Origin: Candidatus Eiseniibacteriota bacterium
GTDB lineage: Bacteria > Eisenbacteria > RBG-16-71-46 > JAFGJU01
Reading direction: 5' to 3'
DNA: 64,000 nucleotides
NCBI GenBank assembly: GCA_026388185.1
Contig: JAPLKG010000008.1
Location: 273,149-337,148, forward strand
Shown here in pieces: positions 3,804 through 57,314 of the stretch. The notes under the pieces are model-generated. The model did no database searches and had not been told where the DNA came from. It saw only the letters and a list, made by a program, of their open reading frames with translations. The first letter of the stretch is position 1. Each line of letters opens with the position of its first letter. The position numbers were made by a program, and so were the translations under genes.

Positions 3804-3823
3804 CGCAGGGATTGGAACGTGAC

Positions 3824-30258: not shown

Positions 30259-30363
30259 GATTTTGTCCCTCGGTGCATTCAGGAGCAGAGCCCGTCGCTG
30301 CGAGCCGGGAGGATGATCCTGGAGTACCGGTCGGGAAGAGGTATCGAGAGGAGAAACGGCCCC

Positions 30364-31737: not shown

Positions 31738-31779
31738 ATAGCGGAACTGAGACGGACGCGTGCACGCGGGAAGGAGGAG

Positions 31780-32901: not shown

Positions 32902-32999
32902 GGAGTTCCGGTATCGAGCCGCTCGTTCGTCGGAGATTTCTGCTGGATCGAGACGTCGATTGAGGCACGTTGCGCCTTGTTTGACGAGATGGTGGAAAA

Positions 33000-36049: not shown

Positions 36050-37588
36050 ATGGGCAGAGAAAGAAGCGCACTGCTTCTTTTGCTGGTAGTCTCACTCGTG
36101 CTGCTTGCTATTCCCACGTCTTCTTCCGCTTACCTGGAAACTATATGGCTTCGCGGTACCGGTGTTGAGCTCATTCAAGGGTCCGGAACAATCCGTCTTG
36201 CCGGCATGGGGAACCTGACAGTAGCGATTGAAGACGAAAACAATCAAGTTGACCTCTACGATTTCACGGGTAACGTCGCCGCCCTCGCTCTGGACAAGAA
36301 CACGAGCAATGTGGATTCCTGGGCCAGCTACGGCAAGTGGGCTGATGAGAAGGACGATTTCCGATGGCAGGACATCGACATTGTGCAGAGTGGGGCACTC
36401 GTCGTACTGAGAGGCAAGGGCGACTATGCGGGGGGAGTGACCATCTCAACTCGCAGACTCGATCTCAATAGAGTTGACGACCGGAATCTGAGGGAACTGC
36501 TGAAAGTAAGCTTTCCGAAGAGTGAGACTGCAAGGCCCGAAACCTCTCTGGTCGATACGGAGATAACGAGTGACCTTGTGGAGGGATACTACACTCACAA
36601 GGTTTTCGGCCGTGCTTTCCTCGGGGTGCACGGATGGGGGATGTTCGATGCTGAAAAAAAACCCGTGCGACTTCATTATGACCTGACCGACGATGTGGAC
36701 GATTTTGGTGGAGGCCTGGGCCTTGTAGTCCTGCCGACCAAGTGGATGCAAATCGGCGGAACCGTGGACTTGAATTCTCAACTTGTTGAAGCCACAAGCG
36801 TGGACGCTTTTCATCAGGATACGTACACTCAGAAACGTGGCATACTTACTGTTTCATCGCACGCCTTGCTAGAATTCATGGGCAAGCTGCGCGGCGTGAT
36901 GAACTACAAACATTCTTCCTTTGATAGCGACGAGACGTTGGACCTGCACTGGTCTGAGCTCTACGTGTTGAATCCGCAGTTGGAAACGGACGTCCGCATG
37001 AAGCTCAAGGTTGCTTCCGAGTCGCACGTGTCCGATTTTTTCGCCACTCGTTGGATCGTCTCGGGGCTTGGATTACCGCTCACGGTGAGCGGCTATTTTG
37101 ATATGTTGAACGAGGAGTTCTGGCTTCACAACGAGCCGAATGTGATCCTTTGGGTGGACGAGTATGACGAGGCCCTGAACGAATGGAATCTCAGGGGTGG
37201 GGCGTCATACAAGATTGGAGAGAAAGGGCAGGCGGGAATGGAGGTACGTCTCAATAGAGGAAAGTTGGAGAACCGACTCCCCATTGAGGAAGGATACCGG
37301 AATTTCCGCACCCTGGATGTCAGAGGTGGCGGTGAGTATCGCCTCCTGAGATGGCTCGCTCTCAGGGCCGGATATTCCCGAGCTAAAGAAGAGAGAAGCA
37401 TAGGAGTGCCCGAATACGATTTCAATTCGAACACGCTCTCTGTGGGTGCTGGGTGCTTCCTGAGAAAAGATAGCCTGAGTCTCGACGCCGCTTTCGTCAA
37501 CAAGGTGACCAGGCCGGAACAGGACATCGGTGACGGGAGAGAGACCAGGGATCAAAGCTTTACACTGTACGGTCGGTTCCTCTTCTAG
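36050..37588 (+). CDS. Putative outer-membrane beta-barrel protein
   Basis: Signal peptide LLLLLVVSLVLLAIPTSSSA; alternating amphipathic pattern; C-terminal ...YGRFLF with terminal Phe. Confidence 0.4.
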   Translation: MGRERSALLLLLVVSLVLLAIPTSSSAYLETIWLRGTGVELIQGSGTIRLAGMGNLTVAIEDENNQVDLYDFTGNVAALALDKNTSNVDSWASYGKWADEKDDFRWQDIDIVQSGALVVLRGKGDYAGGVTISTRRLDLNRVDDRNLRELLKVSFPKSETARPETSLVDTEITSDLVEGYYTHKVFGRAFLGVHGWGMFDAEKKPVRLHYDLTDDVDDFGGGLGLVVLPTKWMQIGGTVDLNSQLVEATSVDAFHQDTYTQKRGILTVSSHALLEFMGKLRGVMNYKHSSFDSDETLDLHWSELYVLNPQLETDVRMKLKVASESHVSDFFATRWIVSGLGLPLTVSGYFDMLNEEFWLHNEPNVILWVDEYDEALNEWNLRGGASYKIGEKGQAGMEVRLNRGKLENRLPIEEGYRNFRTLDVRGGGEYRLLRWLALRAGYSRAKEERSIGVPEYDFNSNTLSVGAGCFLRKDSLSLDAAFVNKVTRPEQDIGDGRETRDQSFTLYGRFLF

Positions 37589-37603: not shown

Positions 37604-39046
37604 ATGAAAGATCTCGCCCTTCTCGCCATGGACGTCGCCAAGGCTGGTGGAGCCAGCTACGGTGACATCCGAATGATCGAGACGAAAGTGGAGAACGTCT
37701 CCACAAAGAACGGCAAAGTCGGCTCTTACGAAGCCATAGAGGACATCGGGTTCGGAGTGCGCGTCATTGCGTCTGGTTCGTGGGGCTTCGCCAGCAGCGA
37801 CGACCTTTCGAGAGAATCTGTCCAGGCGACCGCCAGGCGGGCCATAGAGACTGCCCTTGCCAGCTCAAAGCTCAAGGAACAGGAGACTGTGCTGATTCCC
37901 GAGGGCGCGCACGTGGGCAGGTGGAGTACGCCCTGCAAGATCGATCCTTTCAATGTGCCTCTCGACCAAAAACTGTCATTCTTATTTCAGGTGGACGAGG
38001 GCTTGAGGCGGGTCAAGGGGCTCACGATTGCGGAGTGTTCCCTCGGTTTCTTGCGCGAGAAGCAGATCTACGCCAGCACGGAAGGCTCTTACATAGAGCA
38101 AGAGCTTCTTCATTCCGGTGGCGGGATGGTGGCTTTTGCGGTGGGGCAGGGAGACGTCCAGCGTCGCTCTTTCCCTTCAAGTGAGGGCCATTACGCTTCG
38201 GGTGGATACGAGATTGTGGAGGGACTGAACCTTCTCGAGAACTGTGAACGTGTTGGTCGGGAGGCGGTCGCTCTTCTTTCCGCCGACGAGTGTCCTTCCG
38301 GAAAGAAAGACATCATTCTCGACGGTGCGCAATTGTGCCTCCAGATTCATGAGTCCGTGGGGCACCCCTCTGAACTTGATAGAGTGCTGGGCACGGAGGC
38401 CAATTACGCCGGTACCAGCTATCTCAGTCTTGATAAGCACAAGAAGCTCCAGCTTGGCTCTGAGCACGTGACCATCGTTGCCGATTCCACGCTGCCTGGT
38501 GGGCTTGCCACCGCAGGCTTTGACGACGAGGGCGTTGCGGCGCAGAAGTGGGAGCTTGTTTCGAAGGGTCGTTTTGTGGGCTACCTCACTTCCCGGGAGT
38601 TTGCGGCCGTATGCGGTGACGATAGGAGCAGAGGCTGCATGAGAGCTGACGGTTGGAACAGGATTCCACTCGTCAGAATGACGAACATCGGCCTTGCTCC
38701 CGGTAACTGGGACCTTGAGGATTTGATCGCGGACACCAAAGACGGCATCTTCATGCTCACCAACAAGAGCTGGAGCATCGACCAGATGCGCTACAACTTC
38801 CAGTTCTCCACCGAGATTGCCTGGGAGATCAAAAACGGGAAGCGGGGACGCATGCTGAAGAATCCCAATTACCAGGGGATAAGCACGGAGTTTTGGTCTT
38901 CCTGCGACGCGGTGTGCAAGCAATCGCAATGGATTCCTTGGGGAATCGTCAATTGTGGCAAGGGGCAGCCAGGCCAGATAGCGCGGATGACGCACGGTGC
39001 TGCGCCTGCAAGATTCAGAAACGTGAATGTTGGAGTCACCAAGTAG
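37604..39046 (+). CDS. tldD: Metalloprotease TldD
   Basis: HESVGHPSE metal-binding motif; about 480 aa; followed by pmbA. Confidence 0.9.
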   Translation: MKDLALLAMDVAKAGGASYGDIRMIETKVENVSTKNGKVGSYEAIEDIGFGVRVIASGSWGFASSDDLSRESVQATARRAIETALASSKLKEQETVLIPEGAHVGRWSTPCKIDPFNVPLDQKLSFLFQVDEGLRRVKGLTIAECSLGFLREKQIYASTEGSYIEQELLHSGGGMVAFAVGQGDVQRRSFPSSEGHYASGGYEIVEGLNLLENCERVGREAVALLSADECPSGKKDIILDGAQLCLQIHESVGHPSELDRVLGTEANYAGTSYLSLDKHKKLQLGSEHVTIVADSTLPGGLATAGFDDEGVAAQKWELVSKGRFVGYLTSREFAAVCGDDRSRGCMRADGWNRIPLVRMTNIGLAPGNWDLEDLIADTKDGIFMLTNKSWSIDQMRYNFQFSTEIAWEIKNGKRGRMLKNPNYQGISTEFWSSCDAVCKQSQWIPWGIVNCGKGQPGQIARMTHGAAPARFRNVNVGVTK

Positions 39047-40395
39047 TGGATGGAGCCAAGGCGGAGGCCATACTCAAGAAAGCCCTCGGGTTTTCCCGTG
39101 CGGACGAGTCTGAAGTCTTCATTGGCGGGGGCAGCTATTCTCTCACTCGATTTGCCAACAGCATTATCCACCAGAACGTAAATGAGACGCGTTACCAGCT
39201 ATCGGTGAGGAGCGTGTTCGGCAAGAAGACAGGGCGCGCAGTCACGAACAGGTTCAGTGACGATGACCTCGCCTCCATTGTGAAGAAGTCCGAAGCCGTG
39301 GCACGGGTTCAACCTGACATACCCGAACTTCTTCCCGTACCAGGACCGCAATCGTACCAGCGTGTAGAGGCCTTCGACGCAGAAACGGCGTCCTTCTCGC
39401 CCGACGCGCGGGCAGAGGCCGTGAAGAAAGCGGTGGAGATCTGCAAGAAAAGCGGGTTTCAGGCCGCCGGCTATTTTTCCACGGCCTGCGGTTCCATAGG
39501 TAGCTACGGCGAGATTTCTCCTCTCGCCATCGCCAACTCCAACGGGCTGTTCGCGCATCACTGCGGGACAGAGGCCTCCTTCAGCATTACCGCCATGGCG
39601 GATGATAGTTCCGGCTGGGCACAGGCGACCTCGTGGAAGGTGTCAGACATAGACGCGGTGGAGCTTGCGTCCGTCGCCGTTGAGAAGGCAAAGCGCAGCA
39701 GGAATCCAAGGGCAATCGAGCCGGGCAAGTACACAGTTATTCTTGAACCCGCGGCCGTCGCAGAGCTTCTTGGATACATGGCCTGGGTGGGTTTCGGGGC
39801 ACTCCAGGTGCAAGAACACAGAAGCTTCATGTCGGACAAGATTGGACAGCCTCTTTTCGGACCGAACGTCACGATCTACGACGACGTATACAACGACCTG
39901 TTGAGGGGGCGTCCTTTCGATTACGAGGGCGTGCCCGTGCGGAAGGTCGCCATAGCTGAGAACGGCGTCATAAAGGGGCCCATCTATGACCGGATGACCG
40001 CCGCCAAGGAGAATAGGCAGAGCACGGGACACGGTTTGCCTGTACCCAATACGCTGGGCCCGCAATCTGCTTCCGTAGTTATGGACGCCGCGAAGCCTGT
40101 GACTCTTGCAGAGCTACAGAGCGCAGCAGATAACTGCATACTTGTCACACGGTTCTGGTACGTGAACGTGGTGGACCCCATGAAGGTGATCCTGACCGGT
40201 ATGACCAGGGATGGCACCTTTCTCATTGAGAAGGGAAAGATTGCGAGCGGCATCCGGAATTTTAGATTCAACCAGAACGTGATAGAATTGCTCAACAACA
40301 TCAAGGCCATGTCGGCTCCGATTCGGTCTGGAATGTGTGTGGTGCCGGGCCTCTTGGTGACTGAGTTTAATTTCTCAAGCGGGACGGAGTTCTGA
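39046..40395 (+). CDS. pmbA: Metalloprotease partner PmbA/TldE
   Basis: GTG 39046 overlaps tldD stop (TAGTG); TldD/PmbA-family protein lacking the HExxxH motif. Confidence 0.8.
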   Translation: MDGAKAEAILKKALGFSRADESEVFIGGGSYSLTRFANSIIHQNVNETRYQLSVRSVFGKKTGRAVTNRFSDDDLASIVKKSEAVARVQPDIPELLPVPGPQSYQRVEAFDAETASFSPDARAEAVKKAVEICKKSGFQAAGYFSTACGSIGSYGEISPLAIANSNGLFAHHCGTEASFSITAMADDSSGWAQATSWKVSDIDAVELASVAVEKAKRSRNPRAIEPGKYTVILEPAAVAELLGYMAWVGFGALQVQEHRSFMSDKIGQPLFGPNVTIYDDVYNDLLRGRPFDYEGVPVRKVAIAENGVIKGPIYDRMTAAKENRQSTGHGLPVPNTLGPQSASVVMDAAKPVTLAELQSAADNCILVTRFWYVNVVDPMKVILTGMTRDGTFLIEKGKIASGIRNFRFNQNVIELLNNIKAMSAPIRSGMCVVPGLLVTEFNFSSGTEF

Positions 40396-40641: not shown

Positions 40642-40804
40642 CAAGACCTCTGCGAGAGAGTCTTTTCGCACTTTGTCAGTTTCACCCTCTTGCGCATAAG
40701 TCGTTTGCATGGGGTCGGGGCTCGCGCTCACGTCAAGAAGAAACCATTCAGGTTGTTCCAGTCTGTCGAATGTTGCGCGGCTGTAAGGAAAGGAGTGCGT
40801 GGAG

Positions 40805-43492
40805 ATGCGCCGTTGTCACAAGCTCTTAGTTCTGAGCCTGATGTGCGTCTTCGTTGTTTCAAGCCCTTCAATCAGCTTGGCCCAGGGCTCAGGGAAGATC
40901 GCAGGCAAAGTGGTGGACGCGGCTACAGGCCAGCCCCTTGCCTTCGCGAGCGTGGTTGTGCTCGGAACCACCCTGGGTGCGACGGCCCTTAGTGACGGCT
41001 CTTTCGTGATCAACAAGGTGCCAGTCGGAGTCCACTCCGTCAGGGCAATGATGATGGGCTACGACACTGCGACCAGGGCCGATCTCTCCGTCGATGCCGA
41101 CAGGACCAGCTCGGTAGAGTTTTCGCTACATTCGAAGGTAGCCGCAACACTTGACGAGATCAGGGTGAAGGGGCAGCGAGAGCAGATAGATTTCAAGAGT
41201 TCGTCAACGAAGCACGTGGTGGAAGCCAAGGAACTCACCCAACTGCCCGTCGACTCCTTCCAGGAAGCCATCGCCTTGCGGTCAGGGATAGTGGCACAGG
41301 GAGGAGAGCTGCACTTTAGGGGCGGCCGTACGAGTGAAGTCCTCTACATGGTCGACGGTATACCCGTTCGTGACCCTCTTGTCGGGGGGGCGGTTGACCT
41401 CGCCACCATGGCGATGTCCGAGTCCGAAATCCTGGTCGGCGGACTTGATGCCCAGTACGGCAACGCCCAGTCCGGCATTGTAAACGTGTCGACAAGAGAA
41501 GGCGGGAGCACTTTCTCGGGGGAGATGCGCTTTCTCACCGATGACTACGGAGCCAAGGACAAGACCTACGACAACTTCGATAGGATCAGCGTGGGTTTTG
41601 GCGGCCCGTTCTTCGTGAAGGACATGACTTACTTCATGTCCTACGACGGCACTTTCACCGATACCTATTTGAAGACTTCCGAGCTCCGATCTCGTTACAG
41701 GCTGTTGGACTTCATCTCGCTGGGTAACAGGCAGAATAATGAGTCCAAGTTCCAGGGCAAGTTGGCATACAACATCTCGAGCAACCACAAGCTGACTGCC
41801 GAGTACGTCCAGAACTACCAACTTTGGGACAGCTACCTGCACATGTGGAGCAGAGACGGCTACGTGCAGACTATGCCCGACACCGCGACGAGCGGCGAGA
41901 TCAAGACGCTATATGGAGATTGGTCATGGTACAAGGTTGATTCGACCTACGTTGCTTACAACCCTGCCGAGCACACGCCCGACAACCTTAATGAATTCCG
42001 CCAGCTCAAGTTGGTCTGGAAGCAGAAGATAAGACCGAATCTCTTCTACACGGCTAAGGTCAGTCGCCATTCGTACTATTTTGTCTCGAGCGTTCTTGGC
42101 AAGAAACCCTGGGAATACTCTATTCGCTATCCTCAATATTGGTACAACTGGATAGAGGGCACGGTGGAACCCTTCTACGTAACCCACGGTGACTTTCCCG
42201 CTTACACGGAGAGGGCCACGACCGTGTGGACCTCGGTGGGTGATGTCACTGCGACGCACAGAGGGCACACGCTGCAGTCGGGATACGAAGCGACGTACAA
42301 CGACATGAGACTCCTATCTATTCGTTATCCTGAGCAGACCAACGCCCAAGGTTTGTACGGGGCACTGAGGAGCGACTACCATTACTACAACCCCGAAGGA
42401 GCATTCTACGTCCAGGACAAGTGGGAACACGAGGGCATGGTGCTCAACATAGGGCTCCGGTATGACGTTTTCTCAGTGGGAGATCAGATAGACGCCTCCG
42501 AGATCACGGACAGGGTCAAGGATCAGATCAGCCCCAGGATCGGGATCGCGTATCCGATTTCTGATAGGGACGTTCTTAGTTTCCACTACGGCCGTTACTA
42601 CCAGATTCCGAACAGACAATACATCTTCGAGGACAGGGCAAGCACGAGTGCGGTCATCACCAGAGGTAACCCGGACCTCACGAACGAAACGACCGTTTCT
42701 TATCAGGCCGCCGTTCAGCACATGTTCACAAGCACGGTGTTCGGGCAGTTTTCCGTCTACTACAAGGACATCTTTGGATTGCTTTCCGCCCAAGAAAGGG
42801 TTGTGGCGGACAGTCCGCAGCCGGTGTACGTATATGTGAATCAGGACTACGCTTCCAGTAGAGGTTTCGAGCTTACCCTCAGAAAACGTTTCAGTTACAA
42901 CTTCGCAGGAGAGCTTTCATACACGTACGGGCTTGCCACCGGTGTGGCGTCTGATCCCGACGCGCAGACGAGAACGCCGTTCCTCTATCTGCCGATCGCA
43001 GAGCAACCGCTCGACTGGGACCAGAGGCATACTGTGAGCGCACAGCTCCAAGTGAGTGTGCCTGAAGAGTGGAGCGTCAGCTTCGTTTGGAGATACGGCA
43101 CGGGGTTCCCGTATACGCCTGTCAGCAGAGACCAGAGGGTGCAGGATCCCTCTTTGGTCAATTCCAAGAGACTTCCCAGCTCGACCACTCTGGACATGCA
43201 GGCCGACAAGACTTACAGACTTTGGGGGCAGCACCTTACGGTATTTATGCAAGCCATGAATCTGCTTGACGCCAAGAACATTGCAGATCTGGCACCGACG
43301 AACTGGCCCGTCTCGCCATATAGCGACACGGACGACTACATAATCTACTACACGGAGACCGGAAGAGCCGGCGGAGCGTATAACGCAGGAGACGTCAACG
43401 GTGATGGTCTGGACGATTATTACCCCGTCAACGATCCTCGCGTGTGGGACGAAGGCACTTCTGTGAGGATAGGCGTAGGGATTCAGTTTTAG
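40805..43492 (+). CDS. TonB-dependent outer-membrane receptor with N-terminal carboxypeptidase-regulatory-like domain (SusC-like architecture)
   Basis: Signal peptide, GKIAGKVVDAATGQPLAFASVVV... domain, plug domain, long barrel ending in Phe. Confidence 0.8.
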   Translation: MRRCHKLLVLSLMCVFVVSSPSISLAQGSGKIAGKVVDAATGQPLAFASVVVLGTTLGATALSDGSFVINKVPVGVHSVRAMMMGYDTATRADLSVDADRTSSVEFSLHSKVAATLDEIRVKGQREQIDFKSSSTKHVVEAKELTQLPVDSFQEAIALRSGIVAQGGELHFRGGRTSEVLYMVDGIPVRDPLVGGAVDLATMAMSESEILVGGLDAQYGNAQSGIVNVSTREGGSTFSGEMRFLTDDYGAKDKTYDNFDRISVGFGGPFFVKDMTYFMSYDGTFTDTYLKTSELRSRYRLLDFISLGNRQNNESKFQGKLAYNISSNHKLTAEYVQNYQLWDSYLHMWSRDGYVQTMPDTATSGEIKTLYGDWSWYKVDSTYVAYNPAEHTPDNLNEFRQLKLVWKQKIRPNLFYTAKVSRHSYYFVSSVLGKKPWEYSIRYPQYWYNWIEGTVEPFYVTHGDFPAYTERATTVWTSVGDVTATHRGHTLQSGYEATYNDMRLLSIRYPEQTNAQGLYGALRSDYHYYNPEGAFYVQDKWEHEGMVLNIGLRYDVFSVGDQIDASEITDRVKDQISPRIGIAYPISDRDVLSFHYGRYYQIPNRQYIFEDRASTSAVITRGNPDLTNETTVSYQAAVQHMFTSTVFGQFSVYYKDIFGLLSAQERVVADSPQPVYVYVNQDYASSRGFELTLRKRFSYNFAGELSYTYGLATGVASDPDAQTRTPFLYLPIAEQPLDWDQRHTVSAQLQVSVPEEWSVSFVWRYGTGFPYTPVSRDQRVQDPSLVNSKRLPSSTTLDMQADKTYRLWGQHLTVFMQAMNLLDAKNIADLAPTNWPVSPYSDTDDYIIYYTETGRAGGAYNAGDVNGDGLDDYYPVNDPRVWDEGTSVRIGVGIQF

Positions 43493-43539
43493 AGAGTTGG
43501 CTCTTGTGCACCTTCTAAGAGTCTGATGGAGGTCAGGAA

Positions 43540-46002
43540 ATGAGTTTCGTCAAGCGGGTGATGCCGCCGAGCTTCTTCGTCGTCTGTGGGTTGGTGGTGG
43601 GTGTGATGCTGGCTGCCAACCCTTGCCTTGCCCGGGGGCCTATGGACGATCCTTTTGAAGGTGTTCCCGGTGCGCAAGGAATCTACTGCTTAAGGCCTCC
43701 CAACGTCTACACACACGACGTTGGAAAGGTGACGCTCCAGGTCACAAACCTTGGCTTTTTCGGCAATCCTTACATCGAGGCCATCTCGATGGGTTGGCGG
43801 GGTGGAGAGTATCTTTACGTGGCAGGGTTGTGGATAGGGGCAATGGACGAAGACAATGTTCCTCACGTGTCCACGGCCGCGTATCAGGCGGAATTCAGAC
43901 CCAGCATGAACACTCTTGACCACATTTACGTCTCCTACGAAGGCATGCCTGGCGGCAAGAGGTATGGACTCGGGAATAGCAGCGGTGACGACGACGGCGA
44001 TGGGAAGGTTGACGAAGATTTCCAGGACGGTTATGACAACGACGGCGACGGCAAGATTGACGAGGACTTCGGGGCCATCGGCCAGCAGATGTTCTCGTGC
44101 GTATACAGAGATGACACTCCGGAGGCCAGGGCCTCTTACACCGAGCACGTGCCCTGGGGGCTCAAGGTGGAGCAAAGGAGTTTTGGTTGGGCCGTGAGCG
44201 GTTCCAACGAATTCATAGGTGTAGACTACAACATCTATCATGATGGTTCCGACGTCATGCGCAACGTCTACGTAGGCTTCTTCGTGGACGCGGACGCCGG
44301 GCCGAAGGGTCAGGAAAATCCCGGTTACTGGACAGACGATCTGGCCGGATACGCCGACACTCTTGTGCAGATATACGACGCCACGCAAATTGCGGGATGC
44401 GAGACTGACACTATTCGGATTCAAGTTGCATACATATGGGACGTTCCGGACAACGGCACGACTGCAAAGGGTGGGGACGTGGATGGAGCCGTAGGTGTTA
44501 TGTTTCTCGGCCACAAGACCGATCGCACCGGCGTAACCGCTCCCGAGTCGGTCAAGGTCGCCACTGTCCGATGGTTCAGTTCGACGGCGCCTTACCCGGA
44601 AGGCGACCCCGGAACCGACCCTGAGCGATACGACCTCATGGCCAGCCGTCGGATTCCGAGTCGAAACGCCACCACTCCAAACGACTACAGATTCCTGCTC
44701 TGCGCCGGGCCTTTCCCGGTTGTTTCGCCGGGAGATGTTCTTCCCTTCCAGGTGGCCTTCGTGGTCGGCAAGGGCTTTGACGGAATGCTGGAGAACGCGA
44801 TAGCGGCTCAGAGAATTTACAACGGCCAGTACTACAGCATGGACCCCAGCGCTACGTGGGGCTGGAACGGCAAGGAATCGCTGGTCAAGTGCGAAGGGGT
44901 GGGGTGCTACCAGTGCGTGGATGATGATTGCGACTCGCTCACTTCCTGCGTGATCATAAAGACGGGACAACAGGTCGCCGCCGATCTGGATTGCGACCTT
45001 TGCACCGGCGTCGCTGGCAAGGAAAGCCTTGTCCACTGGGTGGGTTCCACCGCGCCGCCGCCCCCTATTTGGAATGACGATCCTACTCTCTGGAATGATG
45101 ATCCAACCGATGATCCTGTTCCGCCCGCTGCTACGGCGTCGATGGTTGGCCCTGCCGGCGACAAGAAAGTCGTGCTGCAATGGGACAACTCGAGTGAGAT
45201 AGTGCCCGATCCTCTTTCTGCAAAGCTGAGGTTTGAGGGATACAGAATCTGGAAGGCCGCAAACTGGAAGCGGCCCGTGGGCGAAGTGGGTCCTTCCACC
45301 GACCTGTGGATGTTGATGGGAGACTTTGCGTATCATCCTATTGACAGTCTGGGCGCGAATTCTCCCAAGTATCTGGGCAACACCAGGGAATGGGGTGAGA
45401 ACATCGCGTACGTCATCTGCGACACGTCTCTTGCATATTATGACTCGGACACACTCGCACTTCCTGGAGAGGAGGGTGAGGAACCGGACACCGTGATAGT
45501 GCATCACTATCCGGTGGGCAGGTACACGTTCACTGACCCCAATGTGATCAACGGGATGATCTACTTCTACAGCATTACGCCGTATGCGAAATGGTTTGAC
45601 ACTGCTTCGCAGGAGTGGATTGAGATTCAGACTCAGCCTGCTGCCACCGAGAACATTGCCATAATTCCGAGGGCAAACGCCCAGGACAAGCTTGGAAAGG
45701 TCACGGTAGTGCCGAATCCGTACGTGGGAGCCGCGGCGTGGGATCTGACCCCCAGCGACACTGACCCGACCGGCACCAAGATAGGCTTTTTCGGCCTGCC
45801 GAAGTGCAAGAGCACTCTTCGCATTTTCAGCCTATCGGGTGATCTGATCAGAGAGATGGCTCACGACGGTTCTGACGGCAACGGGACAATCTACTGGAAC
45901 ATGGTCACGAGAAACGGGCAGGACGTGGTGAGTGGAGTCTACCTGTTCTCCGTGGAGAGTGATTGGGGAACGTACGTAGGGAAATTCGTTATAATCAGAT
46001 AG
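43540..46002 (+). CDS. Large secreted protein with Asp-rich calcium-binding-like repeats and a T9SS-type C-terminal sorting domain
   Basis: Signal peptide; DDDGDGKVDEDFQDGYDNDGDGKIDEDF; Cys-rich block; C-terminus ...TLRIFSLSGDLIREMAHDGSDGNGTIYWNMVTRNGQDVVSGVYLFSVESDWGTYVGKFVIIR resembles Por/T9SS CTDs. Confidence 0.55.
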   Translation: MSFVKRVMPPSFFVVCGLVVGVMLAANPCLARGPMDDPFEGVPGAQGIYCLRPPNVYTHDVGKVTLQVTNLGFFGNPYIEAISMGWRGGEYLYVAGLWIGAMDEDNVPHVSTAAYQAEFRPSMNTLDHIYVSYEGMPGGKRYGLGNSSGDDDGDGKVDEDFQDGYDNDGDGKIDEDFGAIGQQMFSCVYRDDTPEARASYTEHVPWGLKVEQRSFGWAVSGSNEFIGVDYNIYHDGSDVMRNVYVGFFVDADAGPKGQENPGYWTDDLAGYADTLVQIYDATQIAGCETDTIRIQVAYIWDVPDNGTTAKGGDVDGAVGVMFLGHKTDRTGVTAPESVKVATVRWFSSTAPYPEGDPGTDPERYDLMASRRIPSRNATTPNDYRFLLCAGPFPVVSPGDVLPFQVAFVVGKGFDGMLENAIAAQRIYNGQYYSMDPSATWGWNGKESLVKCEGVGCYQCVDDDCDSLTSCVIIKTGQQVAADLDCDLCTGVAGKESLVHWVGSTAPPPPIWNDDPTLWNDDPTDDPVPPAATASMVGPAGDKKVVLQWDNSSEIVPDPLSAKLRFEGYRIWKAANWKRPVGEVGPSTDLWMLMGDFAYHPIDSLGANSPKYLGNTREWGENIAYVICDTSLAYYDSDTLALPGEEGEEPDTVIVHHYPVGRYTFTDPNVINGMIYFYSITPYAKWFDTASQEWIEIQTQPAATENIAIIPRANAQDKLGKVTVVPNPYVGAAAWDLTPSDTDPTGTKIGFFGLPKCKSTLRIFSLSGDLIREMAHDGSDGNGTIYWNMVTRNGQDVVSGVYLFSVESDWGTYVGKFVIIR

Positions 46003-46042
46003 TCGGATCTGACGGTACCTGACAAAAGGAGGAGGTAAAGCC

Positions 46043-46978
46043 GTGAAAAGGCTTGCGACAATTGCTCTCTTACTACTGTTCATTCCTGCAACGTGTCTGG
46101 GCGCTGCCATATTCGAGAAAGTCGGAACCGTGGGCGGGCAATTTCTCAAGCTTGGGATAGGTGCCAGAGCTGCCGGAATGGGAGGAGCATACGTGTCGGT
46201 TGCAGATGATGCGACGGCCGTCTTCTGGAACCCTGCGGGTATAGCCCGCATTACGGGCAACGAGGTGTCGATCAACCACATGGTGATGCCTGCTGGCATA
46301 GCGTTCGACCAGCTTACGTACGTGTTCTCGTTAGGCTTCATCCCGGGCGCTTTTGCGGTCAATGCAAGGGCTCTAACGATGGACGACATGCCCCGCACCA
46401 CGGTTTTCTATCCCGGCGGCGACGGTACCTACTTCGACGCAGGTGACATGGCGTTCGGGCTTTCCTATGGGCGTTCACTGACCGACAAGTTCTCCGCGGG
46501 TGCGACCTTGAACGTGGTGAGGTCGGGTCTTGACGAGTATTCGGCTCAATCAAACACGATTGACTTTGGGACCATATACGACACCGGTTTCAGATCCATA
46601 AGGATTGGCATGTGCATCTCCAACACCGGCTCGGAAATGAAGTTCATTGACAGGGGCGTGAAGATGCCGGTGATATTCCGGGTTGGCATGTCCATGAGTG
46701 TTTTCCAGAACGGACCGCATTCCATACTCTCCGCCGCGGAGTTCTCGCATCCGCCCGATAACGCCGAGAGGGCGAACTGGGGAGCCGAGTATTCTTTCCA
46801 GGACTTCTTCTTTGCGCGCGCGGGGTACAATTTCAACTACGACAGTGACGGCGTTGCGTTCGGTGCAGGCTTCAAGTTTCCGGTGAGCGGAACTGCTGTC
46901 GCAAGGCTTGATTATGCATACACCGACTGGCAAACCCTTGGTGGACTTCACAGGGTTTCCATGGAGCTGTCCTTCTAG
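46043..46978 (+). CDS. Outer-membrane beta-barrel protein, PorV/PorQ-like (candidate T9SS shuttle component)
   Basis: Signal peptide; GIGARAAGMGGAYVSVADDATAVFWNPAGIA motif as I recall for PorV/PorQ; C-terminal ...SMELSF; adjacent to CTD cargo gene. Confidence 0.45.
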   Translation: MKRLATIALLLLFIPATCLGAAIFEKVGTVGGQFLKLGIGARAAGMGGAYVSVADDATAVFWNPAGIARITGNEVSINHMVMPAGIAFDQLTYVFSLGFIPGAFAVNARALTMDDMPRTTVFYPGGDGTYFDAGDMAFGLSYGRSLTDKFSAGATLNVVRSGLDEYSAQSNTIDFGTIYDTGFRSIRIGMCISNTGSEMKFIDRGVKMPVIFRVGMSMSVFQNGPHSILSAAEFSHPPDNAERANWGAEYSFQDFFFARAGYNFNYDSDGVAFGAGFKFPVSGTAVARLDYAYTDWQTLGGLHRVSMELSF

Positions 46979-47003
46979 TTGACGTCTTCTTTTGTCAGGT
47001 AAT

Positions 47004-47043
47004 GGAATGGGTGTCGTATCCAGCGACACCTATTCCATTTTCC
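47004..47043 (+). terminator. Rho-independent terminator
   Basis: 13-bp stem GGAATGGGTGTCG/CGACACCTATTCC (one G-U), 7-nt loop, then ATTTTCC, 26 nt after the barrel-gene stop. Confidence 0.7.
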
Positions 47044-47065
47044 GGGCTGAAAGGTAGCCAGTACC

Positions 47066-48565
47066 GTGATGGCGTCTCTGTCTGCAAGAACTCTTGTCCT
47101 GGCATTGGTGGTCTCAGCCTCTTGCGCTGTCGTAACGCCACTTAGTGCCGGAGGTTTTCCCGTTGAGGGCACGGGAGACATCGAGTTCCAGGCGGACTGT
47201 GCCAGCTTTCTTGGACCCGACGGTACGGTTGAAGAGGAATTCTATGTCAGGGTGCAGAGCGAGCAGCTCAACTTCGAGAGAAGAGGCAAGAAGAATGAAG
47301 CTCACGTGCTTCTGACAGTGACTTTCGTCAACGAGTTGGGAGACGCCTACGAGATCAAGAGCCGGGAGTTCACCCCCGATCTGGAGGACAAGCCTGCGCG
47401 GGATGACTCCAATCTCTTCATGGTGCGTTACCCGATAACTCCCGCCGCAAAAAAGGTCCTAATCACGCTCGAAGATTTGAGGGCGCGCAGGCGGGGCATT
47501 TTCTACCTGTTCACCAAGGAAAGAAGGAAGGGAATCGCTGAGGCTGACGTCGAGGTTTCTGTACCCCTTTCCGGGACTCTCTCCATGAGCGACATCCAAT
47601 TTGCGCGCTCCGTCAGTCCCAGTCAGTCGCAGAGTTCCGGATCCTTCGCGAAGAGCGGGCTTGACGTGATTCCGAATCCTACAAGAAGCTACGGTCTCCG
47701 AAGGGGAACGCTGTTTGCCTATTTTGAGGTCTACGATCAGACAGAATTCGCCCTCGAGAGGGGCAGAGTCTTCTACGACGTCGTGACGTCCATTCTGGAC
47801 GTTAACAGGGAAACAGCGCTCTCAGACACCCAGAAAATCGTGTCGTCTTCTCGGCAATGGGTGCACACGATAGCCTTGGACGTCTCAAAATTGCCGACCG
47901 GAAGCTACTGGTTCAGGACCGAAGTCTGCCAGCAAGAAGGACTGAATAGAATTCTGCGTCAGAGCCAATTCAATGTGCTCTGGCAGGACGCTTCCTGGCA
48001 GAGGAACGACAGCTACGTCCTCGATGAAGCCAGTCTCTTTCTTACCAACGGGCAGTACAAGGCGTTCAAGCGCATGAATGCCGGAGAGAGAGAAGGATTC
48101 CTCGACGGATTCTGGAGACGCCTGGACCCCACGCCCGGAACCGCGACAAATGAGGTCAGGGAGGAGTTCGATCGAAGGGTAGCCTACGCAAACGCCCAGT
48201 TTTCCTTCTTCACCAAGGGCATGCTGTCCGACCGCGGGCGGATCTACGTGAGATACGGAGAGCCGGACCTCATCGACAAGCAAGTCGTGCCGACGGCGGG
48301 AGACGCGGCAGATATTCTCCTGGATGCCACCCTGAGCACGGAACAGGAAAATCTGGACCGCAGAGGAATAACGCCGAGGCTTGTCGGAAATGACAAGAGA
48401 TCGTACGAAGTGTGGATATACAACATGAAGGGGAGGCCCCTGTTCTCGGGACAGGATCAGATGATGACGCAGTCGCTCGGGTTGAAGTTCGTATTTGTTG
48501 ACGACACAGGCGCTGGGAACTACGTGCTTGACTACAGCAGCGACCGCAGCAACAAGTACCGCTAG
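47066..48565 (+). CDS. GWxTD domain-containing secreted protein
   Basis: Signal peptide; C-terminal block FLDGFWRRLDPTPGTATNEVREEFDRRVAYANAQFSFFTKGMLSDRGRIYVRYGEPDL fits the GWxTD pattern with GMLSD in place of GWxTD. Confidence 0.6.
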   Translation: MMASLSARTLVLALVVSASCAVVTPLSAGGFPVEGTGDIEFQADCASFLGPDGTVEEEFYVRVQSEQLNFERRGKKNEAHVLLTVTFVNELGDAYEIKSREFTPDLEDKPARDDSNLFMVRYPITPAAKKVLITLEDLRARRRGIFYLFTKERRKGIAEADVEVSVPLSGTLSMSDIQFARSVSPSQSQSSGSFAKSGLDVIPNPTRSYGLRRGTLFAYFEVYDQTEFALERGRVFYDVVTSILDVNRETALSDTQKIVSSSRQWVHTIALDVSKLPTGSYWFRTEVCQQEGLNRILRQSQFNVLWQDASWQRNDSYVLDEASLFLTNGQYKAFKRMNAGEREGFLDGFWRRLDPTPGTATNEVREEFDRRVAYANAQFSFFTKGMLSDRGRIYVRYGEPDLIDKQVVPTAGDAADILLDATLSTEQENLDRRGITPRLVGNDKRSYEVWIYNMKGRPLFSGQDQMMTQSLGLKFVFVDDTGAGNYVLDYSSDRSNKYR

Positions 48566-48636
48566 CTTTTTGTCGCAGAAACGGGCTCCGCATCTCCCGG
48601 TGGTACTCCGCATTCCTGCGGCGCGCGGGTTTTCGC

Positions 48637-48666
48637 TTGACATTCCATGCCCGCCTCTCTTATACA
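48637..48666 (+). promoter_or_regulatory. Sigma-70-type promoter TTGACA-18 bp-TATACA
   Basis: Consensus -35 at 48637..48642, -10-like TATACA at 48661..48666, about 65 bp upstream of the pfk start. Confidence 0.45.
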
Positions 48667-48731
48667 TATTTCACCAATCTTGTGAGAACGGACGTCTTTT
48701 CCGTGTGGTTTTCTATTCGGTGGAGGTCAAA

Positions 48732-49769
48732 GTGAGGATTGCAATCCTGACCGGTGGTGGTGATTGTCCCGGTCTCAACGCTGTCATAAGGGCTGTGGTC
48801 AGGAGGACGTTTCAAAGCTACGGAGGTCAAGTTCTGGGCATAAGTGACGGGTGGGCGGGACTAATTGAGGGAAGGCTTTCCCCGCTGGACATGCGCGCAG
48901 TTTCTGGGATTCTTCCCAAAGGCGGGACTATACTGGGCACGTCCAGAACGAATCCGTTCAAGGTGGAACAAGGTGTGGAGAGGATCAGGGAAAATCTGGC
49001 GAAATTCGGCATCGAGGCCTTGATCGTGGTTGGAGGGGAAGACACCCTGGGCGTGGCCACCACACTTTTCGAAATGGGTTTCAAGATCGTCGGCGTACCG
49101 AAGACAATCGACAATGACCTCTCCGGGACGGACTACACCTTCGGATTTGACACGGCCGTGAACGTCGCCACTGAGGCCATAGACAGGCTCCACACCACTG
49201 CCGAATCCCACAACCGCGTCATGGTGGTGGAAGTCATGGGCAGGCACACGGGTTGGATAGCAGTGGAGGCCGGCATGGCAGGTGGGGCCGATGTCGTGCT
49301 GATACCCGAGATTCCCATCAGCGTGGACGAGGTCTGTAAGCTCATCGTGCAGCGTCATCAGAAAGGGAAGGACTTCAGTATCGTTGTCGTGGCGGAGGGC
49401 GCCAAATTCCAGGACAAGGACATCTCTCGCATGATTGTGCAGGACGAAAAGGTGGACGCCTTCGGTCATGTTCGTCTGGGCGGAATCGGTGCCATTCTGG
49501 CTCGTGCGATAGAGGAGAAGATAGGGTTCGAAACCAGGTACACGGTGCTGGGACACATACAGAGGGGAGGCACCCCGACGGCGTTCGACAGGGTCCTCGG
49601 GACTCGATTCGGCGTGGCCGCCGCCGACCTCGTGGCGAAGGGGGATTTCGGCAAGATGGTCAGCCTTCAGGGCAACAAGATCAGGGCCGTGGACCTCAAG
49701 GAAGCGATCGGCAAACTGAAGACGGTCGACATGGAGCTCTACGAGATGGCAACCATCTTCTTTGGTTAG
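48732..49769 (+). CDS. pfk: 6-phosphofructokinase, probably pyrophosphate-dependent
   Basis: GTG 48732 five nt after GGAGG; GGDCPGLNAVIR; GGEDT (Asp at the ATP/PPi discriminating position) and PKTIDND (Lys). Confidence 0.8.
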   Translation: MRIAILTGGGDCPGLNAVIRAVVRRTFQSYGGQVLGISDGWAGLIEGRLSPLDMRAVSGILPKGGTILGTSRTNPFKVEQGVERIRENLAKFGIEALIVVGGEDTLGVATTLFEMGFKIVGVPKTIDNDLSGTDYTFGFDTAVNVATEAIDRLHTTAESHNRVMVVEVMGRHTGWIAVEAGMAGGADVVLIPEIPISVDEVCKLIVQRHQKGKDFSIVVVAEGAKFQDKDISRMIVQDEKVDAFGHVRLGGIGAILARAIEEKIGFETRYTVLGHIQRGGTPTAFDRVLGTRFGVAAADLVAKGDFGKMVSLQGNKIRAVDLKEAIGKLKTVDMELYEMATIFFG

Positions 49770-49843
49770 ACGAAGCGGAGTGGACGGGTTTTTCGGGCCG
49801 CAATCGGGAAGTTACGACGACACGAAAAGCGAGGTATGGAAAA

Positions 49844-50773
49844 GTGACATTGGTGACCAATCGCGAGCTGCTGCAGAGAGCAACCAAAGAAGGTTACGCA
49901 GTCGGAGCCTTCAACACTAACAATCTGGAATTCCTTCAGGCCGTCACCTCAGCGGCAAGTGAAGAGAACTCACCAGTGATAGTCGCAATCTCCGAGGGGG
50001 CGCTCAAGTATGCGGGATTCGGCATGATTGTGACAATGGTGAGAGAGATTGCCACGAGACTGCCCGTGCCCGTTTCGCTTCATCTTGATCACGGCAAGGA
50101 TGCTGCCGTTATCAAGGAATGCGTCGAGGGCGGATTCACGTCGGTCATGGTAGACGCCTCGGACAAGGAATTCGACGAGAACGTCCGGATTACGAGGAGT
50201 GTCGTTGAGCTTGCAAGACCCAGGGGTGTTTCCGTCGAGGCCGAGTTGGGCAGGCTTTCAGGCATAGAGGAGGGGATTTCGGTGACCGAGAGAGAAGCAT
50301 TTCTGACCGACCCTTCCCAGGCGGCCGAGTTTGTCAAGAGAACGGGTGTAGACTCTCTGGCGGTGGCCGTGGGTACGTCGCACGGTGCTTACAAATTCAA
50401 AGGAGAGTCCGTCTTGGTGATTGAGAGGATACGCGAGATAAGGGATGCGACGGGTGGTTTACCGCTCGTTCTTCACGGCGCCTCCGGTGTGAGTCAGGAG
50501 CTTGTTGCGAAAGCGACACGCTATGGAGCAAGTCTGGGAAGGCCCGCGGGTGTTCCGGATGACAGCATCAGAGAAGCAATAAGACTGGGCGTGGGCAAGG
50601 TGAACATAGACACAGACATGAGGCTTGCGTTCATGGCCTCGCTGAGGGAGACCTTGTCGACCAAGACTAGCGAGTTCGATCCTCGTAAGATACTGGGTCC
50701 GGCCAGAGATTCCGTCAAAGAGGTGGTAAAGGGGAAGATGAGGCTCTTTGGGAGCAGCAATAGGATTTCTTGA
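49844..50773 (+). CDS. fba: Class II fructose-bisphosphate aldolase
   Basis: SLHLDHG and TSHGAYKF metal/substrate motifs; about 309 aa. Confidence 0.85.
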   Translation: MTLVTNRELLQRATKEGYAVGAFNTNNLEFLQAVTSAASEENSPVIVAISEGALKYAGFGMIVTMVREIATRLPVPVSLHLDHGKDAAVIKECVEGGFTSVMVDASDKEFDENVRITRSVVELARPRGVSVEAELGRLSGIEEGISVTEREAFLTDPSQAAEFVKRTGVDSLAVAVGTSHGAYKFKGESVLVIERIREIRDATGGLPLVLHGASGVSQELVAKATRYGASLGRPAGVPDDSIREAIRLGVGKVNIDTDMRLAFMASLRETLSTKTSEFDPRKILGPARDSVKEVVKGKMRLFGSSNRIS

Positions 50774-50928
50774 CGACGTTCGCCGGGCTCGAAGGGCCTT
50801 GTCGGCATTCTCGGCAACTCCTCCCACCTTTCAGGGGTGAACATCACGCCCCGTCATCGCCTGCAGCGGCTCAGTGGCAGATTCTACTCCGATCTGCGCA
50901 CGCCCTTTCACTCTCGGTGGAAACCGCG

Positions 50929-51957
50929 ATGGGAAAATCAAGAATAATCTGCACCTTGGGGCCTTCCAGCCAGGACGCGTCCACGCTCGGCGCCATGATG
51001 CGAGCGGGGATGGCCGTGGCCAGGCTCAATTTCTCTCACGGCACTCATCGCGAGCACCAATCTCGACTGGACCTCGTGAGGAGACTAAGCGAGAAACACG
51101 GCCGGGACGTGAGGATACTTCAGGATCTCCAGGGTTACAGAATAAGGATCGGCAAGTTTAAGGGCCGAAAATGGATTGTGCTGAAGGCGGGACAAATAGT
51201 TTTTCTGACCAACAAAAGCGAATTGACGGGCCGGGATATCGTGCCTTTCGACTACAGGGGTTCGCTGGCCGACATCAAGACAGGTAGTTCAATATACGTT
51301 GACGACGGCAACATAGCGTTGAAGGTCCGGACTAAGACCAAGGACTACATTCGGGCGGAGGTGATCGTTCCGGGAGTGCTCAAGGAGAACAAAGGCGTCA
51401 ACATCCCGGAAGTCAATCTGCGATTCAAGGGGCTCACGGACAAAGACAGAACGGACCTCGAATTCGGCGTCAGGAACAGAGTCGACTTCGTCGCCCAGTC
51501 GTTTGTGAGCGGCAAAGAGGACATTCTTTGTCTGAGAAGCGTCCTACGTGAGAGCCGAGCCGATTGCCGAGTGATCGCAAAGATCGAGAATCGCAGGGGG
51601 ATAGACAACATAGACGAGATACTGAGTGTGTCCGACGGCATCATGATAGCCCGCGGAGATATGGGGGTCTCTTTGCCGATATTCCAAATTCCTGTGCTCC
51701 AAAAGATGATTATCAGAAAGTGCAAACAAAGAAGAAAATTCGCCGTCACGGCCACTCAGATGCTTGAAAGCATGACGGAGCACCTGAGGCCCACTCGCGC
51801 AGAAGTGAGCGACGTGGCCAACGCGATGATAGACGGCTCGGATTACCTCATGCTCTCTGCAGAAACGGCCGTCGGCAAGCACCCCGTGGAGGCCGTTGAG
51901 ATGATGACCGAGATTATCGATTTCACGACGCGTTCTCTCGGAAAACTCCATTCTTGA
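50929..51957 (+). CDS. pyk: Pyruvate kinase, short form lacking the C-terminal alpha/beta domain
   Basis: SRIICTLGPSS and ARLNFSHG motifs, PK signature VIAKIENRRGIDNIDEI, MIARGDMGV; protein ends after the A domain at 342 aa. Confidence 0.75.
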   Translation: MGKSRIICTLGPSSQDASTLGAMMRAGMAVARLNFSHGTHREHQSRLDLVRRLSEKHGRDVRILQDLQGYRIRIGKFKGRKWIVLKAGQIVFLTNKSELTGRDIVPFDYRGSLADIKTGSSIYVDDGNIALKVRTKTKDYIRAEVIVPGVLKENKGVNIPEVNLRFKGLTDKDRTDLEFGVRNRVDFVAQSFVSGKEDILCLRSVLRESRADCRVIAKIENRRGIDNIDEILSVSDGIMIARGDMGVSLPIFQIPVLQKMIIRKCKQRRKFAVTATQMLESMTEHLRPTRAEVSDVANAMIDGSDYLMLSAETAVGKHPVEAVEMMTEIIDFTTRSLGKLHS

Positions 51958-52009
51958 GAGACTCGTCGAGAGGCAAGGTGCGAGGAGCCTGGAGCGCAGG
52001 TAGAACAAC

Positions 52010-53113: not shown

Positions 53114-53144
53114 TCAGACACGCTGTTCGAACGGAGGCGATGAC

Positions 53145-54863: not shown

Positions 54864-55041
54864 TGGGCGCTGACAATCGGTGTCGAAGCCCGGTGTCGAC
54901 GGAACGCACCGCCGCAAGGCCCGAGCAACGTCGAAGACGCGCGTCGGCACGGCTCCTGCGCCTCACTTTGTGGTTCACTTCGAGGGCGTTCTGTGCTAGA
55001 GTTGCCGGCAATAAGTACCCTAGCTAACGGAGGTAAGAGCA

Positions 55042-56046: not shown

Positions 56047-56096
56047 AGAAGGAAGGGGACCGTCGGAACCGAAGAATCCAGAAAGGGGACTCGGAG

Positions 56097-57299: not shown

Positions 57300-57314
57300 C
57301 AAAGGAAAGAGGCC

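Follow-up and report, generated by a model that had tools for sequence, protein, structure and literature searches.

Four adjacent genes for predicted envelope proteins

Examination of a 64-kb stretch of the genome of Candidatus Eiseniibacteriota bacterium (assembly GCA_026388185.1, contig JAPLKG010000008.1; all 64,000 nucleotides are hereafter termed the window, and positions are counted from its first letter) revealed four adjacent and similarly oriented genes, here termed A to D, encoding a TonB-dependent transporter, a large secreted protein, a PorV/PorQ-family outer-membrane barrel and a GWxTD-domain protein, respectively. An initial annotation had proposed four consecutive genes for secreted or outer-membrane proteins in this region, and four plus-strand open reading frames (ORFs) were indeed found, separated by 47 nucleotides (A-B), 40 nucleotides (B-C) and 87 nucleotides (C-D). 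Gene A lies where it had been placed, although its assigned start, position 40805, is an internal ATG, with the ORF beginning at 40799. The genes, together with a structured element in the spacer between C and D, are as follows:

40799-43492, plus strand: gene A, TonB-dependent transporter (897 amino acids [aa])
43540-46002, plus strand: gene B, secreted protein (820 aa)
46043-46978, plus strand: gene C, PorV/PorQ-family outer-membrane barrel (311 aa)
47001-47040, plus strand: hairpin in the C-D spacer, comprising a 17-bp perfect stem and then UUUUCC
47066-48565, plus strand: gene D, GWxTD-domain protein (499 aa)

The layout of A to D, all on one strand, is operon-like. Ribosome-binding sites of the GGAGG type are found 5' of B and C, a non-coding stretch of 403 nucleotides lies upstream of A, and each of the four products begins with a signal peptide-like N-terminus. 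The products of A and C end in phenylalanine, as is usual for outer-membrane barrels. A sigma-70-type promoter was sought upstream of A and none was seen, a result that is uninformative for this phylum. The C-D spacer folds at -39.2 kcal/mol, as compared to -20.1 kcal/mol for shuffled versions of the same sequence (z of -5.9; 0 of 200 shuffles were as stable), and the hairpin found there possibly acts either as an intra-operon attenuator of transcription into D or as a stabiliser of the A-B-C mRNA. A terminator-like site at 48615-48629, 50 nucleotides 3' of D, is no more stable than shuffled sequence and so does not establish the 3' boundary of the operon.

Conservation of the gene cluster and its linkage to Ton motor genes

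A scan of one genome per species identified 403 loci containing relatives of B (individual loci are given numbers with the prefix L). The best 80 of these belong to Eisenbacteria, Krumholzibacteriota and UBP1, with a single Latescibacterota genome also represented; those B homologs that are named belong to Candidatus Eisenbacteria, and cluster look-ups of distant B relatives returned no taxa outside Eisenbacteria. When gene order was determined by tblastn and iterated profile searches over 78 loci, about 50 proved to contain A, B, C and D in that order, all on one strand, these being distributed among Eisenbacteria, Krumholzibacteriota and UBP1. Of 88 individual B genes, 45 are flanked by an A on one side and a C on the other, and D follows wherever the contig continues.

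The same arrangement was also seen in two distant, AT-rich metagenome contigs, L083 and L084, in which the flanking genes are unrelated. Here, homology was detected for A (E-values of 6e-62 and 9e-28 in L083 and L084, respectively), C (1e-27 and 5e-52), D (5e-23 and 2e-18) and the sorting-domain-like tail of B (7e-13 and 4e-17). In two more Eisenbacteria-like contigs, genes encoding a large protein, a barrel resembling PorV and a GWxTD protein are followed by pfk-gap-pgk-tpi. Because the A-B-C-D order is kept across about 50 loci, the arrangement is far from what chance would produce, and the best explanation is that the four genes form one conserved functional module of the outer membrane.

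In Krumholzibacteriota, genes encoding the Ton motor adjoin this module. Pfam searches placed exbB-exbD-exbD-tonB directly 3' of D at all ten loci with enough downstream DNA, while at three further, truncated loci exbB begins after D. The Eisenbacteria differ in having glycolysis genes 3' of D; at two loci of this group, Ton genes were found 7-8 kb downstream, namely, exbB/exbD in L086 and a TonB_2 gene in L001, and no Ton motor genes were found within the 64-kb window. At L054 and 12 other Krumholzibacteriota loci, genes encoding V/A-type ATPase subunits A, B and D lie upstream of the module (e.g., L054, 354-4277), and at these loci tonB is followed by genes for TolC-like, ATP-binding cassette (ABC) ATPase and HlyD-like proteins (e.g., L054, 13047-18334).

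Gene B is also found in additional copies. Extra copies, sometimes 5' of A, between C and D or 3' of D, occur in or beside the module at L003, L008, L010, L017, L055, L058 and L079, and at about 26 loci there are solo B paralogs, with A, C and D all absent to a distance of 8 kb, such that a genome can encode several B paralogs without their own A, C or D. A neighbour-joining tree of B revealed an old clade of solo paralogs in Krumholzibacteriota, where those B genes flanked by A and C form a single clade, and showed the solo or extra copies of Eisenbacteria to be repeated recent duplicates of the module copy. A second, partial array, B-B-C, with no detectable A or D, is found at L011 (5318-11299), in the same genome as L010, indicating that the B-C pair can duplicate on its own. 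The solo paralogs fit a shared anchoring or export route better than a strict one-to-one pairing of the SusC/SusD type.

Family assignments of A, C and D

The features assigned to the products of A, C and D are as follows:

N-terminus of the 897-aa product, plus strand: signal peptide of A
40898-41128, plus strand: CarboxypepD_reg N-terminal extension of A (Pfam, 57 bits)
41144-41173, plus strand: TonB-box-like strand of A, ATLDEIRVKG (aa 116-125), of alternating hydrophobicity, between the N-terminal extension and the plug
41198-41476, plus strand: plug of A (PF07715, 27.7 bits; cutoff 23.9)
41945-43264, plus strand: barrel of A (TonB_dep_Rec, PF00593, 87.3 bits; cutoff 27)
N- and C-terminus of the 311-aa product, plus strand: signal peptide and terminal phenylalanine of C
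aa 33-305, plus strand: two beta-sandwich domains of D, preceded by a signal peptide
48020-48424 (aa 319-453), plus strand: helical/alpha-beta GWxTD domain of D

With both plug and barrel profiles scoring above their curated cutoffs, the initial description of A as a TonB-dependent receptor stands. At the motif level, the TonB-box-like strand, the LPVD and LHxRG motifs of the plug and the phenylalanine at the C-terminus are conserved among 50 A orthologs. The SusC/RagA model is absent from the NCBIfam matches of A, and a sequence search of the PDB with A returned no match at E≤1e-3. PF25183, which we take to be an Oar-like barrel family, is not among the Pfam matches of the A protein of the window at E≤0.1; faint or weak matches to this family were seen in A orthologs.

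C matches the PorV/PorQ family model NF033709 with 194.6 bits (cutoff 90), as do 22 of 22 C orthologs (best E-value 7.8e-63). The more specific equivalog models all fell short, namely, PorQ, against which C scores best (100.5 of the required 220 bits), PorV2 (70.5 of 325) and PorV (60.8 of 250), and the same holds for the orthologs. The prediction that C is a PorV/PorQ barrel is thus borne out at the family level, yet the missed equivalog cutoffs mean that C is not shown to be a cargo-shuttling PorV, as had been proposed. When the C-family profile was compared with the PDB, the only match was Flavobacterium johnsoniae PorV (6h3i_F; E-value 2.4e-21). Weak PorP/SprF matches were seen in 7 of the 22 C orthologs, and PorV-family barrels weakly match Toluene_X and TodX.

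D likewise proved to be the GWxTD-domain protein that had been anticipated, scoring above cutoff against both TIGR04514 (86.4 bits; cutoff 28) and PF20094 (37.6 bits; cutoff 26.9). The core motif from which the domain takes its name reads GMLSD in the clade to which D belongs, and D is 100% identical to a protein annotated in an Eisenbacteria metagenome-assembled genome. A sequence search of the PDB with the D profile returned nothing useful, a second profile search, for GWxTD relatives among cultured organisms, yielded almost nothing more owing to its word prefilter, and a literature search found no papers mentioning GWxTD. A 'PNP' motif of D was considered as a possible sorting domain and rejected, with hhalign detecting no domain shared by D and B.

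Further GWxTD genes were found in other settings, one being solitary and another lying beside a starch-utilisation cluster. In the AT-rich lineages represented by L084 (9473-10360) and L085 (10413-11351), a Lip_A_acyltrans gene lies directly 3' of the GWxTD gene, which in L085 is also followed by glycosyltransferase genes. The adjacency of GWxTD and Lip_A_acyltrans genes hints at a link between GWxTD proteins and lipopolysaccharide (LPS) or outer-membrane biogenesis.

Domain anatomy of B

Neither B nor its family, which comprises thousands of members, gave an above-threshold match in Pfam or NCBIfam, and a sequence search of the PDB with the B profile returned nothing useful. The structure prediction that had been recommended for this protein was performed with AlphaFold (predicted local distance difference test score [pLDDT] 75.9, predicted template modelling score 0.74) and yielded a model that is almost entirely beta. 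Together with the sequence, this model defines the following features:

aa 1-32, plus strand: signal peptide, a hydrophobic N-terminus ending in an AxA-type site
43672-44829 (aa ~45-430), plus strand: beta supersandwich (predicted structure)
43984-44067 (aa 149-176), plus strand: tandem pair of calcium-type repeats, DxDxDGxxDxD, lying within a supersandwich loop
44890-45003 (aa 451-488), plus strand: Cys-rich module or knot with seven cysteines
45070-45108 (aa 511-516 and 518-523), plus strand: duplicated WNDDPT in a Pro-rich, low-confidence linker
45157-45639 (aa ~540-700), plus strand: Ig/Fn3-like beta domain (predicted structure)
45691-45999 (aa 718-820), plus strand: C-terminal seven-strand beta sandwich, sorting-domain-like

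The N-terminal 390-400 residues or so are modelled as a galactose-mutarotase-like supersandwich, a fold type that binds carbohydrates. Alignment of 52 B homologs (41-80% identity) revealed dense conservation. The Asp-rich repeats described in the initial annotation correspond to DDDGDGKVDED (aa 150-160) and DNDGDGKIDED (aa 166-176), two DxDxDG-type repeats which we take to be thrombospondin type 3-like and which, judging from the type of motif, probably bind calcium; D151, D154, G164, D166, D168, D170, D174 and D176 are invariant in the 52 homologs. Also invariant are H203, H325 and Q404, a number of Asp (D250 and D252 among them), Trp and Arg (R384 among them) residues, and the cysteines C464, C485 and C488, the last three belonging to the Cys-rich module, which had been recognised earlier and which may be disulfide-bonded. 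Both copies of WNDDPT are present, although the duplication is confined to the B protein of the window. Since relatives contain a single copy, this is a local duplication without evident function, and it falls in a region where pLDDT drops below 50 (aa 519-536). A conserved lipobox was not found in B, nor was a SusD-like Pfam match, and the predicted structure is all-beta.

The C-terminal tail of B

The C-terminal sandwich of B contains strands spanning aa 722-818, the first two of which are separated in the AlphaFold model by a disordered insert (aa 728-744). PorZ and PorU, type IX secretion system (T9SS) components, retain their sorting domains. Against the general sorting-domain model TIGR04183, B scores 15.5 bits (cutoff 23). 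Against the PorZ model NF052228, it scores 20.5 of the required 260 bits, with the match restricted to the tail (E-value of the sorting-domain part, 1.3e-4). Among 52 B relatives, tails match PorZ in 43, TIGR04183 in 20 (E≤0.01) and the PorU model NF033707 in nine, in all cases below threshold. A Foldseek search with the B model retrieved the PorZ structure 5m11 (E-value 3.6e-4; 19% identity over 153 columns, the aligned region not being reported). A seven-strand Ig-like sandwich is the fold of the sorting domain, and both PorZ and PorU are described as containing such domains (PMC11285876).

Distant relatives of B, 500-650 aa in length, have the N-terminal domain in common with B, and 5 of 10 such proteins scanned match FlgD_ig at their C-terminus above the Pfam cutoff (38-47 bits; cutoff 27). 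A hidden Markov model (HMM) built from the B-family sorting domain matches the tail of that L083 protein for which a Por_Secre_tail assignment had been precomputed in Pfam, and weakly (E-value 0.0033) matches the tail of an unrelated BNR-repeat protein in L064. In a search of about 1.3 Mb of related loci, the same HMM detected three more tail-bearing ORFs outside the B family, a sample too small for a census of cargo. The tail of B is thus of a type common to unrelated secreted proteins, including that of L064, and is a diverged member of the T9SS type A/FlgD_ig class of sorting domains. As such, the earlier proposal of a T9SS-like C-terminus holds at the level of the family and of structure, although B taken alone remains below the TIGR04183 cutoff.

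The L064 protein (2497-5742, plus strand; 1,082 aa) contains a BNR-repeat, sialidase-like region, a sub-threshold match to choice-of-anchor D and a tail that matches the PorU and FlgD_ig models below cutoff; its gene adjoins a solo B paralog on a Krumholzibacteriia contig. Both PorZ and PorU were considered as identities for B and rejected, as the model contains no beta-propellers and the PorZ score was obtained from the tail only, and as no C25 peptidase match was found in Pfam or NCBIfam.

A tentative model and its alternatives

Taking together the family memberships of A, C and D, the domain anatomy of B, the conserved gene order and the Ton linkage, the reading favoured here, tentatively and with less than even confidence, is that the module is a Ton-powered unit for capture and import at the cell surface, in which B would be a capture protein held at the surface by barrel C. 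In such a unit, A would serve as the TonB-dependent gated channel. B would be exported via Sec and then cross the outer membrane, to be retained at the surface by a sorting-domain-like sandwich that stays bound to the dedicated barrel C, much as PorZ is held on PorQ, PorU on PorV, or type B cargo on PorP/SprF barrels (PMC12618676). The calcium-stabilised supersandwich of B would catch a ligand, most likely a glycan, and hand it to A, which would import it with the ExbB-ExbD-TonB motor, and D would be a periplasmic accessory. We infer here that B lies at the surface, binds C and passes its ligand to A, as we do the class of that ligand and the function of D. This capture or display reading is strengthened by the A-B-C-D order across phyla, the Ton operon of Krumholzibacteriota and the carbohydrate-binding-type fold of B. 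The suggestion, made from the sequence alone, of a nutrient-capture or surface-display module is accordingly still the best reading, although one-to-one pairing is disfavoured.

Several points weigh against this reading. The sorting-domain profile matches of B are below the curated domain cutoffs, as are the PorV, PorQ and PorV2 equivalog scores of C. No T9SS core genes are present among the scanned genes of the 64-kb window. The supersandwich fold is not proof of sugar binding, since YidC P1 has it too. B has solo paralogs, unlike the paired SusC/SusD, and D is left unexplained by the model. Moreover, the organisms that carry the module are all uncultured.

An alternative, judged unlikely, is that B and C are a housekeeping pair for T9SS attachment or outer-membrane biogenesis, similar to PorZ/PorQ or PorU/PorV and handling surface glycan or LPS for the anchoring of other cargo, with A and D being co-regulated envelope components rather than parts of a nutrient importer. 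Such a pair would agree with the PorZ model being matched by more B tails (43 of 52) than is the general model for type A (20 of 52) or that for PorU (9 of 52), with C scoring best against PorQ, and with the position of the module among housekeeping genes, as well as with the single clade formed by A-C-flanked B genes in Krumholzibacteriota and the lipid A acyltransferase gene directly downstream of GWxTD in L084 and L085. Also, the B-C order mirrors that of porU and porV, which are adjacent in Bacteroidota, the large protein being encoded before the barrel. A glycan-binding fold would, moreover, suit LPS delivery, as shown for PorZ (PMC8545088). Yet B has neither the beta-propellers of PorZ nor a match to the C25 peptidase of PorU, its scores against both models lie far below cutoff (20.5 of 260 bits for PorZ), its repeated recent duplication within lineages is unusual for a subunit of a machine, and known T9SS attachment complexes do not show such tight linkage to genes for a TonB-dependent transporter and to a Ton operon.

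That same linkage could instead point outwards. In a Ton-powered export scheme, rated as distinctly unlikely, A would act as the outer-membrane translocon through which B and its paralogs pass, with ExbBD-TonB supplying the energy, while C would receive and anchor the exported protein and D would assist in the periplasm, all independently of SprA. Ton motor genes adjoin the module in Krumholzibacteriota, no T9SS core gene was found in the window, and B paralogs without their own A are expected if several cargoes use one exporter. Like Oar, A has a CarboxypepD_reg N-terminal domain, and A orthologs show faint or weak matches to PF25183, which is presumably Oar-like; the A protein of the window, however, has no such match at E≤0.1. 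There is precedent for a TonB-dependent transporter being required for protein secretion (PMC6434023). On the other hand, the association of sorting domains and PorV-family barrels is otherwise with the SprA translocon, reported to be specific to the Fibrobacterota-Chlorobiota-Bacteroidota (FCB) group (PMC12611786), and the BNR-repeat protein of L064, bearing the same type of tail, argues for a general sorting pathway. A more far-reaching version, and a long shot, is that A-B-C-D and ExbB-ExbD-ExbD-TonB together make up a self-sufficient Ton-powered pathway for the export and anchoring of sorting-domain proteins without SprA or GldKLMN, in which A would translocate, C would receive and anchor, and D would act as adaptor in the periplasm. 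Finally, the four genes could be conserved neighbours that share no mechanism, in that C might be a FadL-type channel for hydrophobic compounds and A an ordinary receptor for siderophores or oligosaccharides, with B and D being secreted proteins unrelated to them. PorV-family barrels do belong to the FadL superfamily, as reflected in the weak Toluene_X and TodX matches, and much of the surrounding region of Eisenbacteria is itself syntenic (gap, pgk, tpi, secG), such that order alone can reflect ancestry. Still, the order survives in Krumholzibacteriota, L083 and L084, where every flanking gene differs, extra B copies insert into or beside the module, and the intergenic gaps are short, making mere proximity very improbable.

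Genomic surroundings of the module

Those scanned genes found around the module are all housekeeping genes, with the exception of two envelope genes lying upstream. The first of these (34757-35836, plus strand) encodes an EB_dh/DOMON-like protein with a lipobox-like N-terminus, and the second (36050-37588, plus strand) encodes a 512-aa barrel that is a distant relative of the PorV family, aligning with the C family by hhalign (E-value 5.7e-5), having the RxxGMGG...NPAG motif in common with it, and weakly matching TbuX. Sequence searches of the PDB with both genes returned nothing useful. This pair precedes the module in about 30 Eisenbacteria loci and not in Krumholzibacteriota. It resembles the pairing of a surface lipoprotein and a FadL-type barrel seen with BamH and BamG, an identity without sequence support.

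Between the upstream barrel and A lies a tldD/pmbA metallopeptidase pair (37604-40395, plus strand), found at this position only in the window and in its closest relatives, L003 and L007; in other Eisenbacteria, the barrel gene lies directly before A. As the TTG start of the second tldD/pmbA gene (38893) creates an overlap of 154 nucleotides with the first, that start is probably placed too far upstream.

Neighbours elsewhere in the window include a kdsD-like gene, rpoN, hprK, rapZ, the gene for phosphotransferase system enzyme I, ftsK and polA. Genes of glycogen metabolism and glycolysis are unusually concentrated around the module, all on one strand (9443-11710, 15302-17346, 30313-34598 and 48495-58067), and comprise those for two GH57 enzymes, pgi, a nucleotidyl transferase, pgm, a DUF4912 protein, two pfk paralogs, fba, pyk, a phosphorylase, gap, pgk and tpi. 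Close to the module, just one gene of appreciable size is on the minus strand (58945-59973); its product, a secreted protein of 342 aa, has no match in Pfam and only a faint one of the NHL-repeat type. An ORF of at least 1,178 aa (60464-64000, plus strand), open at the end of the window and for that reason absent from the ORF list, contains DUF4062, STAND NTPase (nSTAND1/AAA_16), winged-helix and WD40 regions and, from these, looks like a STAND ATPase of the signalling or defence type.

Relation to known systems

The module recalls SusC/SusD, as well as TbpA/TbpB, in that a gene for a CarboxypepD_reg-containing transporter is followed by one for a secreted protein of ligand-binding fold, as suits Ton-powered import. 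It differs from SusC/SusD in that A has no SusC/RagA match, B is all-beta rather than helical and tetratricopeptide repeat-like as is SusD, B lacks a conserved lipobox, and solo B paralogs exist; moreover, the anchor would be a sorting-domain-like tail on a PorV-type barrel and not a lipid. The module would thus be a functional analogue of SusC/SusD or TbpA/TbpB in which a T9SS-style protein anchor replaces the lipid anchor.

Similarity to PorZ-PorQ and PorU-PorV of Porphyromonas and Flavobacterium lies in the encoding of a protein of some 800 aa, with an Ig-like tail nearest those of PorZ and PorU, beside a PorV/PorQ-family barrel. In contrast to those pairs, B lacks propellers and a C25 match and is multi-copy, equivalog scores are far below cutoff, and genes for a TonB-dependent transporter, a GWxTD protein and the Ton motor are linked to the pair. 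In the case of type B sorting-domain cargo, the cargo gene is genetically linked to that of its cognate PorP/SprF barrel (PMC12618676), a FadL-like protein that sets both secretion and final anchoring at the surface (PMC12618676, PMC9143113); unlike this system, the tail of B is type A/FlgD_ig-like, and C belongs to the PorV/PorQ family.

Oar carries a CarboxypepD_reg N-terminal domain, a trait shared with A, and offers a parallel for possible outward protein transport, although the A protein of the window does not match the Oar-type barrel profile. To our knowledge, PopC, the protease secreted with the help of Oar, has neither a sorting-domain tail nor a PorV-type partner. In Myxococcus xanthus, Oar is the TonB-dependent transporter needed for PopC secretion (PMC6434023).

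A further parallel is offered by Flavobacterium's machinery for beta-barrel assembly (BAM), where the FadL-family BamG serves as a pedestal for extracellular BamH, of carbohydrate-binding fold, together with the calcium-rich partner BamM (PMC12611786). As proposed for B and C, a barrel anchors an extracellular protein of carbohydrate-binding fold. The BamG-BamH pair is conserved across FCB phyla, and BamH is a lipoprotein, unlike B with its sorting-domain-like tail; bamG and bamH are found at separate loci (Fjoh_1412 and Fjoh_0823), with no adjacent TonB-dependent transporter gene reported (PMC12611786). When profiles of the C family and the upstream barrel were compared with the PDB, only PorV and TbuX were matched and no chain named as a BAM subunit, a test at the level of sequence in which the presence of BamG in the database is unconfirmed. 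With respect to secretion, SprA is reported as FCB-specific and missing only from Chlorobiota among the FCB phyla sampled (PMC12611786).

Literature searches found no papers on Eisenbacteria and type IX secretion, nor on 'FlgD Ig-like' and T9SS, while papers on Eisenbacteria and secretion systems proved irrelevant. Nor was any paper found in which a TonB-dependent transporter is combined with a sorting-domain protein of a family without a curated match, a PorV/PorQ-type barrel and a GWxTD protein. Each component is of a known kind; it is their combination, kept across phyla and adjoining a Ton operon, for which no description was found. The module would provide the first genomic context and a testable role for two large orphan families, namely, the B family and the GWxTD domain. 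It would also present PorV/PorQ-type barrels and T9SS-style tails as wired directly to a TonB-dependent transporter and its motor outside Bacteroidota, which suggests an alternative to the lipoprotein-based SusCD architecture for surface capture. Should the less likely export reading be true, a Ton-driven route of protein export would be revealed, and a Ton-powered pathway lacking SprA and GldKLMN would give deep FCB lineages a relative of type IX secretion that is minimal or ancestral. Given its conservation in many Eisenbacteria and Krumholzibacteriota genomes, the module may be a major cell-surface feature of these widespread soil and sediment bacteria.

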